A program made the position numbers and the translations under genes. From the NCBI GenBank assembly GCA_963556905.1, contig CAUWAY010000003.1, positions 920 through 64,919 on the forward strand: a stretch of DNA of 64,000 bases. Reading direction: 5' to 3'. Below are positions 16,907 to 18,357 of the stretch, in pieces. The stretch is from an uncultured Clostridia bacterium. Lineage in GTDB: Bacteria > Bacillota > Clostridia > TANB77 > CAG-508. Each line of letters begins with the position of its first letter. The stretch's first letter is position 1. Below the pieces are notes generated by a model. That model worked only from the letters and a program-made list of their open reading frames with translations. It ran no database searches and was not told the origin of the DNA.

Positions 16907-17836
16907 CTATCTGGACTTGTCCTTTCTATCTTTTATTTGTTTTCTTTTAATATCTCTAGCTAATTCTTCAAAACCCAATTTCTTAATAGTTTCTATATAA
17001 CTTTTTCTATTGATACACCCTCCATCAAGTGTGATTATATCAACATTTTTCATATAATTATTTTCAAGTAAACTTGTTATTTTACTTGGATTTCTAAATA
17101 ATCTTGAAATATTAGTTACAACTATTTGTTTAATTTTACCTGCTTTTATATCTTCTATAAGTTTATCTAACGCCTCTCTATCTTCAGATACTCCATTCTT
17201 TCTAACATCTATATAATAAACTCTATTTACTATATTATTTTTTTTGCAATACTTCTCTAGTTTATCTCTTTGAAAATAAATGTCTGCATTTATCATATCT
17301 TCATCTACTTTATTTGTTCTCATATATAAAGCTACCATATTTTTATCCTTTTTATTTTCTATTTTTTCATCAATATAATAATCTAATTGTTCTATATTTC
17401 CAACTCGCATATAAGTTAATTCTTTATATTTTTGCTGTTCTTCTTGATTTATTGTATATTCTGGATATTTTATTTTTACTGCTTCAAAAAAATATGGTGC
17501 ATAACTACAACAAAATATATCACTAACATTATAATTACTCGATATTTTTCCTTTTTCTACGTCTATTTCACTATCATAATTACAACCATTAAATAAGCTA
17601 AATGCCATTCTAGTAACTTTTGCACTTGTACTTGTTTGATACGGATCATTTATTGAATCGATATTTATTTCGCCTTTTTCTATATCAAATATTTTATTAA
17701 AATTATTTCTAGTTGTTTCACATATTCCTAATGTATAAACTAATGCTCTATAATATGAATCTGTTGTTCCATATTTTTGCAATAATAAATTTTTCTCTTT
17801 CCAGAATAATTCGTGTTCTTTATTTATAAATTCCAT
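16907..17836 (-). CDS. Protein with a C-terminal serine-recombinase (resolvase) catalytic-domain fold and an unknown N-terminal domain
   Basis: 309 aa. The C-terminal 150 aa read VALYMRTNKVDED...VYYIDVRKNGVSEDREALDKLIEDIKAGKIKQIVVTNISRLFRN, which matches the resolvase N-domain pattern. The canonical RxS nucleophile position reads RTN. The start overlaps the stop of the upstream mazF-like gene. Confidence 0.55.
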   Translation of the reverse strand: MEFINKEHELFWKEKNLLLQKYGTTDSYYRALVYTLGICETTRNNFNKIFDIEKGEINIDSINDPYQTSTSAKVTRMAFSLFNGCNYDSEIDVEKGKISSNYNVSDIFCCSYAPYFFEAVKIKYPEYTINQEEQQKYKELTYMRVGNIEQLDYYIDEKIENKKDKNMVALYMRTNKVDEDMINADIYFQRDKLEKYCKKNNIVNRVYYIDVRKNGVSEDREALDKLIEDIKAGKIKQIVVTNISRLFRNPSKITSLLENNYMKNVDIITLDGGCINRKSYIETIKKLGFEELARDIKRKQIKDRKDKSR

Positions 17837-18200
17837 AATAATTCCTTTTCTGTAAATTAGTAGCTATTCTTATAGCTCTATCTACTAAATATATATATTT
17901 TTGGGGCAATATATCTATTCTTCTTATTAATCTTCTTTTATCTATTACCTTTATTTGTTCTGCTAATATTGTTGCTTTGTACTTCATTTTTCCAAATGAT
18001 TTTATTTTTATGTGTGTAGGAAGAATGCTGTTATTTTTTTCTATTCTTCTTGTTATTGGAATAATTATTGTTGTTGGACTATGCTTGTTTCCTATATCAT
18101 TTTGAATAATCAAAACTGGTCTTATTCCTCTTTCCTCACTTCCCACTGTTTTTCCTAAATTAGCAAGATATATTTCGTTTCTTCTAATTTTATTTATCAT
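17820..18200 (-). CDS. MazF/PemK-family endoribonuclease toxin, close to Bacillus EndoA (NdoA)
   Basis: [50 protein letters not shown]...ILPTHIKI... parallels EndoA [25 protein letters not shown]...LPTHVEI (from memory). The track ORF, extended to 18215, is probably over-extended. Confidence 0.8.
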   Translation of the reverse strand: [126 protein letters not shown]

Positions 18201-18357
18201 TTTTTTGCCTCCCACAATATTTCTTTAGTTGTTCTATCTGTTCTTTATCTTCTTGTTCTATTTCTTCAGCTGTTTTATTTTTACTTGCTCCTAATATTAT
18301 TAAATACATAAAAACAGCTATTACAAACATATTTATTATTAATATTTTTAATATCAT
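18190..18357 (-). CDS. 55-aa single-pass membrane peptide with an acidic C-terminal tail, translationally coupled to the mazF-like gene
   Basis: Unlisted ORF MILKILIINMFVIAVFMYLIILGASKNKTAEEIEQEDKEQIEQLKKYCGRQKNDK. The RBS GAAAGGAAAAA precedes its ATG. Its stop TAA overlaps the mazF ATG (ATGATAAATAAA). Confidence 0.4.
   Translation of the reverse strand: MILKILIINMFVIAVFMYLIILGASKNKTAEEIEQEDKEQIEQLKKYCGRQKNDK

Follow-up and report, generated by a model that had tools for sequence, protein, structure and literature searches.

A MazF toxin without an adjacent antitoxin behind a putative pemK-class leader RNA in the recombination operon of a Clostridial integrative conjugative element

How a MazF toxin can be carried without an antitoxin gene beside it is the question raised by three overlapping genes in a 64,000-nucleotide stretch of DNA from an uncultured Clostridia bacterium (contig CAUWAY010000003.1 of GenBank assembly GCA_963556905.1; the whole stretch is called the window in the following). 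The genes, which encode a 55-residue peptide (pep55), a MazF/EndoA-like RNase and a 309-residue protein joining a DUF6075 domain to a resolvase-like domain, lie in an integrative conjugative element (ICE), and an earlier reading of the DNA (the original prediction) took the peptide for a possible membrane-tethered antitoxin. The explanation favoured here, with a probability of roughly 55%, is that MazF belongs to an excision operon, is held off by attenuation at a structured leader RNA and its terminator and is made together with the recombinases, pep55 not being its antitoxin. For the comparison, 80 loci encoding DUF6075 relatives were collected from genomes and 80 encoding MazF relatives from metagenomes, to which targeted look-ups added more; L-numbers denote the homologous loci collected in this way.

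The toxin itself is a full-length match to PF02452 (PemK_toxin; E=1e-26; 93.8 bits, the curated cut-off being 23.1), finds its best relatives among the MazF/EndoA proteins of the PDB at E about 1e-24 and is strongly basic (pI 10.6). It had been described as near-identical to Bacillus EndoA in its core, which overstates the likeness, the quoted 25-residue stretch being identical at 19 of 25 positions and the whole protein 48% identical to B. subtilis EndoA in the alignment. As for its start, the open reading frame (ORF) list gives GTG 18215, and ATG 18200 is the likelier choice because a GGGAGG Shine-Dalgarno sequence lies 7 nt upstream and because the homologs open with MINK, MNNK or MVNK. Equivalents of Arg25 and Thr48 (B. 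subtilis numbering), which we take to be the catalytic residues of EndoA, are present in the window protein (in IRP and PIT, respectively) and are kept in L162, L164 and L173. Thus, as far as can be judged from its residues, the window MazF is apparently an active RNase.

EndoA-type MazFs are usually paired with ribbon-helix-helix antitoxins. The original prediction that no MazE/EndoAI-type ORF lies upstream held when the window ORFs were checked, and neither a ribbon-helix-helix nor an AbrB-fold antitoxin is encoded beside mazF, so that the arrangement is not that of a type II pair. Furthermore, when EndoAI and MazE were run by phmmer against all ORFs of the window and of the MazF loci, only L107 and L120 were positive, and these, which have an EndoAI-type MazE directly upstream of MazF, serve as the positive control. 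The window MazF thus shares the PemK_toxin fold, the presumed catalytic Arg and Thr and the basicity of the Bacillus, Staphylococcus and Clostridioides enzymes (EndoA/NdoA), but differs from them in being without an adjacent ribbon-helix-helix MazE (EndoAI) and in standing second in the recombination operon of an ICE, amid unrelated backbone genes. Among the candidates compared, it appears to have no dedicated protein partner.

The ICE, carried by a low-GC gut Clostridium, is about 43 kb long and occupies about 13.1-56.5 kb of the window, with the three genes near its recombinase end. Below 12.9 kb the genes are chromosomal (hydrogenase, NuoF-like, dnaG and sigA), and chromosomal genes for a penicillin-binding protein and for cell-wall functions restart at about 57.6 kb; in between, a relaxase, a conjugative ATPase and a site-specific recombinase belong to a single uninterrupted block, which makes the cluster the end of the element that serves recombination. 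Besides the relaxase and the ATPase, which is TraG/VirB4-like, the element carries a sortase, a 1367-residue SpaA adhesin, a DUF3991-Toprim protein and ParB. The operon runs from a sigma-like gene through p70, the leader, the terminator hairpin, pep55, MazF, the DUF6075/pseudo-resolvase gene, p134 and p57 to two large serine recombinases (table 1). All three overlapping ORFs were confirmed on the minus strand with the overlaps described for them: the TAA of pep55 (18192-18190) lies 11 nt within mazF, and the 3' end of mazF overlaps the start of the 309-residue ORF by 17 nt (17820-17836), both overlaps being kept in homologous loci. A search for the arrangement in other elements had been proposed, and the full order from the sigma-like gene to the recombinase(s), with a small ORF in the place of p57, recurs in L004, L006-L010, L056, L064, L081, L164-166 and L173-174. 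In relatives without MazF, pep55, DUF6075 (whether or not joined to the resolvase domain that lacks the serine) and p134 occur in the same order; therefore, mazF is an optional insert in the element backbone, translationally coupled on both sides.

The structured leader lies in the non-coding gap of 460 nt that separates pep55 from p70, as a conserved and relatively GC-rich element. An RNAalifold consensus of 12 diverse homologs has 33 pairs in 7 helices, with 98.7% of the cells paired and compensatory changes at 12 pairs; such values were not attained in any of 500 shuffles, and slid controls yielded no more than 2. The leader can be linked to pemK RNA because the homologous leader of L063 scores 31.1 bits on RF02913 (below the gathering score of 34.8) and because invariant blocks and helices are shared with eight Rfam-positive pemK RNAs: the alignment with these has 27 invariant columns, and the P1, P2 and P3 helices of pemK RNA are kept with compensatory changes. 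The pemK motif was reportedly described by Weinberg and colleagues in 2017 as an RNA that precedes pemK genes and is a candidate for their regulation in cis. Both RNAs stand upstream of a PemK/MazF gene on the same strand (mazF starting here at 18200), and both have the blocks ..AUAC/AAAC..G..AGUCA.AG..CGAGCG...CCGUC.CA.. and a multi-hairpin junction; the window leader differs in an extra hairpin on P3, in a conserved P0, P4 and long-range closing helix, which extend it to about 185 nt, and in the pep55 ORF that intervenes before mazF. On these grounds the leader is classed as a putative divergent (RF02913-like) member of the pemK class.

The hairpin that follows has a minimum free energy of -19.8 kcal/mol (z = -6.2), and hairpins of differing sequence stand at the equivalent place in L024, L162 and L063. 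Because its stem is AT-rich, the window hairpin was missed by a simple scan for terminators, and a promoter scan of the minus strand from p70 to the leader found none. Together, leader and hairpin have what looks like an attenuator or riboswitch-like layout.

In the favoured explanation, MazF would be silenced in the integrated element mainly by leader and terminator, i.e. by transcription attenuation, which is most likely its means of control, with no dedicated protein antitoxin. Once the operon is switched on, MazF would be made together with the recombinases and could then, as an RNase, slow the host or reshape or process mRNA during excision, acting as an excision-coupled growth brake or stabilizer, while the DUF6075-resolvase protein, which lacks the nucleophilic serine, would assist the two large serine recombinases non-catalytically. 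An element module or a regulator of excision had been among the roles originally suggested, and the mobile, recombinase-adjacent setting agrees with this part of the proposal, the part that makes the peptide an antitoxin being the one that does not fit.

Several observations weigh against this explanation. The window leader gives no match to the Rfam pemK model even at E<=10. The leader also heads the MazF-less operons of L024, L054, L063 and L167-170, so that it is not a MazF-specific device and appears to regulate the whole recombination operon. A small transmembrane ORF always precedes MazF, with overlapping stop and start, in the close clade (identity of about 60% or more), and it may serve MazF expression or control. 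The PF04014 protein encoded 2.6 kb upstream could act in trans in the window element. Finally, the role of growth brake is suggested by analogy, and a MazF that is apparently active, with Arg and Thr in place, would be a risk to the host if carried without an inhibitor.

Below about 80% identity, the next MazF relatives are found at 45-51% and fall into two groups, one of chromosomal genes directly after alr and the other at the head of recombination modules. In L084-098 the latter consist of MazF, an optional 126-residue resolvase domain without the serine, SHOCT and a large serine recombinase, and in L099, L106, L110, L112, L121, L129 and L138 of MazF, an HTH_17 Xis-like protein and a tyrosine integrase. 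RF02913 stands immediately upstream of MazF in 25 of the 38 MazF loci scanned for it, and no conserved upstream protein ORF was found at the pemK-RNA-linked MazF loci. The window MazF thus belongs to a broad clade of MazE-less MazF/PemK proteins that stand behind pemK RNA and lead recombinase modules. Linkage of an RNase toxin to a recombinase, which had been called unusual, is therefore common to several element families, and it was already annotated in 023_CTn2 of C. difficile, in the order serine recombinase, hypothetical protein, PemK/MazF and sigma factor (PMC6814731). Read from the other side, the sigma-like regulator, PemK/MazF, hypothetical protein and serine recombinase at the end of 023_CTn2 reproduce the window order (PMC6814731). 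Conjugation genes, too, are common to the window element and to Clostridial conjugative transposons of this kind (023_CTn2, Tn5397/CTn-type), from which it differs in having two large serine recombinases and the resolvase-like protein without the serine. Functional studies of the MazF, peptide or DUF6075 genes of these elements were not found in the literature.

The locus is a variant of a recurrent and under-studied order of Clostridial mobile elements, namely pemK RNA, antitoxin-less MazF and recombinase module. If the favoured explanation is true, antitoxin-less MazF would be a regular part of the excision/integration operons of gut Clostridial elements, not a stray remnant of toxin-antitoxin pairs, and pemK RNA would be better seen as the leader of mobile-element recombination operons than as pemK-specific. 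There would then be a handle both on this orphan motif and on how common gut elements decide excision, and the family of resolvase domains without the serine, whether fused to DUF6075 or free, would provide candidate accessory or directionality factors for large serine recombinases. The main interest of the locus lies in the leader RNA and in this family rather than in the peptide.

The 309-residue protein and its neighbour p134 are the first candidates to be weighed as MazF partners. Residues 2-135 of the former match Pfam DUF6075 (E=4.5e-38) and are acidic (pI 4.8, charge -6.4); the only fold match of this domain is PDB 3kby, a hypothetical protein, its comparison with the PDB by sequence gave nothing meaningful, and papers on DUF6075 were not found in the literature. 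Residues 169-301 match Resolvase PF00239 (E=1.2e-16, 61.6 bits), as expected from the serine-recombinase catalytic domain claimed for the C-terminal half, but the nucleophile is missing: the window protein has Asn in place of Ser10 (gamma-delta numbering), and Ser10 is replaced in essentially all of the 86 full-length family members (by Gly in 50, by Asn in 25 and by other residues in the rest), while Y6, R8, D36, R45 and R71 (same numbering) are kept. Neither a helix-turn-helix (HTH) nor a Recombinase plus zinc-ribbon DNA-binding domain was found in it by Pfam. Most likely, to go by these residues, the protein has no catalytic role of its own and serves the two large serine recombinases as an accessory or regulatory partner. 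As to p134, the AlphaFold2 (AF2) model is confident and depicts a neutral, compact helical bundle with no informative structural relative.

That either the DUF6075 domain or p134 is the antitoxin, in the toxin-first order known from higBA or mqsRA, is unlikely, even if it is the likeliest of the alternatives. The acidity of the DUF6075 domain, set against the pI of 10.6 of MazF, and the conserved, translationally coupled 17-nt overlap would suit such a role, and p134 follows every close-clade MazF, even in L161-163, where DUF6075 is absent and p134 adjoins MazF. Those same three loci, however, have MazF without DUF6075, and about 66 of 80 loci have DUF6075 but no MazF; p134 is likewise present in the MazF-less L167-170, its neutral bundle has no antitoxin-like features, and the distant, pemK-linked MazFs have neither protein. 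A precedent for an unrelated partner does exist, since the solitary MazF of M. xanthus is neutralized by the regulator MrpC (PMC4803016). The two systems have in common that a cognate MazE is missing, that MazF is tied to a programme and that an unrelated protein possibly neutralizes it; they differ in phylum and context, the window having no MrpC-like regulator and the programme being, in this case, element excision.

In the first 95 loci, p134 had looked like a strict MazF partner, being present in 15 of 15 MazF loci and in 0 of 66 MazF-less ones; the idea was downgraded when wider sampling of peptide homologs turned up L167-170. In MazF-less loci (L003/L005 5800-5994, L011 5798-6004, L054 5765-5953, L063 5700-5930 and L171 3185-3415), DUF6075 is directly preceded, or pep55 followed, by a gene for a protein of 62-87 residues, and the pattern AYA..IFYVL...I..E.I..FL..LH..HP of these proteins resembles the C-terminal half of p134. 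Kinship of p134 with those encoded ahead of DUF6075 (p64/p76) was considered and set aside, hhalign giving a probability of 1% (E=0.048, not significant) and no support for the resemblance. In L169, a 65-residue ORF between pep55 and p134 (3170-3367) contains YMRVGREEQL, the linker of the window DUF6075-resolvase protein reading YMRVGNIEQL; this ORF seems to be what is left of a DUF6075-resolvase gene that was deleted. In addition, free-standing resolvase-domain proteins of 126 residues, which begin at profile position 13 and are, therefore, without the Ser region, are encoded in L084, L086, L087, L091 and L096 (about 4359-4739 in L086), flanked on one side by a pemK-RNA-linked MazF and on the other by SHOCT and a large serine recombinase. 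They represent a second, independent pairing of a resolvase domain of this kind with MazF and a recombinase.

A second alternative gives the inhibitory role to the leader itself, as a type III-like RNA antitoxin or decoy, or as a substrate of MazF, whose cuts in the leader or in the operon mRNA would make up a self-processing feedback switch of excision. Its attraction is that the pemK RNA upstream and the recombinase module downstream are the only companions of MazF shared across the element families examined, and that conserved single-stranded flanks (AUAAUGAUACUU ... AUGA) adjoin the junction in the pemK consensus. Furthermore, ToxIN (type III) loci are ordered as structured RNA, terminator and endoribonuclease gene, and the window has the same order. 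The leader is, however, without the tandem RNA repeats of ToxIN (none were found in it by TRF), the toxin is MazF and not ToxN, and the RNA of the window type occurs without a toxin too, in the MazF-less operons listed above. The 5' flank AUAC reads AAAC in the MazF-bearing window type and is intact in the MazF-less L054 and L063, and UACAU, the site of Bacillus/Clostridioides MazF, is neither depleted nor enriched across leader and operon genes, the leader itself having none. An inhibitory or substrate role of the leader is, on balance, doubtful, and a step less probable than a role of DUF6075 or p134. Slightly more doubtful again is the combined form, in which leader and antitoxin-less MazF would make up an RNA-protein excision switch, the leader both regulating the operon in cis and either inhibiting MazF or serving as its substrate. 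As a single-copy type III-like antidote or a self-cleavage target, the leader would release MazF only in cells in which the element is activated, tying excision to growth arrest; if true, this would give the orphan pemK motif a function and place a class of MazF under the control of RNA instead of MazE.

The peptide, on which the original prediction was centred, comes third. It spans the membrane once and has a cytoplasmic helix rich in E and Q, is coding and conserved (dN/dS 0.2-0.9), matches no Pfam family itself and, in a profile search, has homologs in 297 clusters, none with a Pfam family. As an antitoxin it would be anchored in the membrane with an acidic helix filling the RNA groove of MazF; its upstream place and overlapping stop and start do resemble the usual antitoxin-toxin order, the small transmembrane ORF ahead of MazF is found in every close-clade member, and the EEIEQEDKEQIEQ stretch is locally acidic. 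The C-terminal tail, though claimed to be acidic, is net neutral (charge -0.2; 8 D/E against 9 K/R in the whole peptide), and the counterpart that precedes MazF and p134 in L161-163, a 44-residue transmembrane ORF, has a basic tail. The peptide had been expected to be conserved in homologous loci, and so it is, yet independently of MazF: homologs with the core MYLVI.G.N..KT.EE.E.ED.EQ...LK occupy the equivalent place of the operon in at least 14 MazF-less loci. In these it stands upstream of DUF6075 (L034, L049, L057-061 and L063) or downstream of it (L001), between leader and p134 plus recombinase (L167-168), ahead of a 65-residue ORF and p134 (L169-170), or ahead of ORFs of 76 and 50 residues and the recombinases (L171-172). 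No such peptide precedes the MazF relatives of 45-50% identity or those that stand behind pemK RNA, and the peptide family outnumbers both that of p134 (107 clusters) and the DUF6075-resolvase set (116 proteins). Since the peptide occurs without MazF, has the larger family and shows a neutral tail and a basic-tailed counterpart, it is improbable as a MazF plug. It is instead a common ICE backbone gene, independent of MazF, and the claim of a membrane-tethered antitoxin should be dropped.

The weakest alternative, in which the AbrB/MazE-fold protein would be a trans-encoded MazE, has in its favour an above-gathering PF04014 match (E=5e-11) on the same strand, within the element and 2.6 kb upstream, but is very improbable, given that the protein is confined to the window and to L081, a twin of the window at 98% identity, and absent from other MazF-bearing loci whose flanks reach that distance, that it ends in a zinc ribbon instead of an acidic tail, that PF04014 is common to many AbrB/SpoVT regulators (as in the NCBIfam AbrB/SpoVT matches), and that its fold differs from that of the usual partner of EndoA-type MazFs.

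Table 1. Genes and RNA features of the recombination end of the element, in window positions.
Feature	Position	Strand	Remarks
Large serine recombinase 2	13114..14680	minus	Two overlapping ORFs: 13877..14680 and 13114..13884
Large serine recombinase 1 (520 aa)	14619..16181	minus	Resolvase, Recombinase and Zn_ribbon_recom domains
p57 (small protein ahead of the recombinases)	16246..16419	minus	Positional counterparts in related loci
p134 (134 aa, all-helical; element-subfamily backbone gene)	16474..16878	minus	
DUF6075 + resolvase-like protein (309 aa)	16907..17836	minus	ORF and Pfam
mazF (126 aa)	17820..18200	minus	PF02452 match
pep55 (55 aa)	18190..18357	minus	First cistron past leader and terminator
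Terminator-like hairpin + U run	18383..18450	minus	Immediately before the pep55 ribosome-binding site
Structured leader RNA, putative divergent pemK class (RF02913-like), ~185 nt	18474..18660	minus	Covariation and shared blocks
p70	18821..19033	minus	
Sigma-70 region-4 protein	19023..19427	minus	Pfam
PF04014 (MazE/AbrB/SpoVT) protein, 82 aa	20833..21081	minus	C-terminal CxxC..CxxC zinc ribbon

Among the flanking genes of the operon, those for the sigma-70 region-4 protein and p70 are syntenic in L004, L006, L064, L081 and L171, and small ORFs resembling p57 occupy the equivalent position in related loci. In L009, L056, L064 and L164-166 the homolog of recombinase 2 is likewise split, at another position, and in L004 and L008 it is intact; the split may be due to decay, to programmed frameshifting or to an artefact of sequencing. 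Near-identical DNA was sought in phage and plasmid collections and none was found; a PADLOC scan gave zero matches, a scan with PHROGs gave generic MazF and integrase matches only, and a scan of viral contigs for the leader pattern gave nothing.

Two adjacent tRNA genes (Rfam tRNA, 64.5 and 69.9 bits) lie on the plus strand of the chromosomal flank, at 2933-3097 of the window; their distance of about 10 kb to the end of the element makes them improbable as the integration site. A decayed module is found at 629-1226 of L082, which has no leader and has truncated forms of mazF and DUF6075; an unrelated HAD-like N-terminus continues there, in frame, into the C-terminal tail of pep55. As to the chromosomal relatives of MazF, in L109, L113, L117, L123-L127, L131, L135, L136 and others a MazF of about 47% identity starts less than 100 nt after alr, which leaves no room for an EndoAI in the B. 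subtilis style, and no EndoAI-like ORF was found there by phmmer; the alr-linked MazF that many gut Clostridia have as a housekeeping gene thus looks antitoxin-less too. Finally, L101 has an Rfam gut-2 small RNA (sRNA; 56 bits, 2422-2469) some 1.5 kb ahead of a MazF homolog, which is followed by a 645-residue protein.

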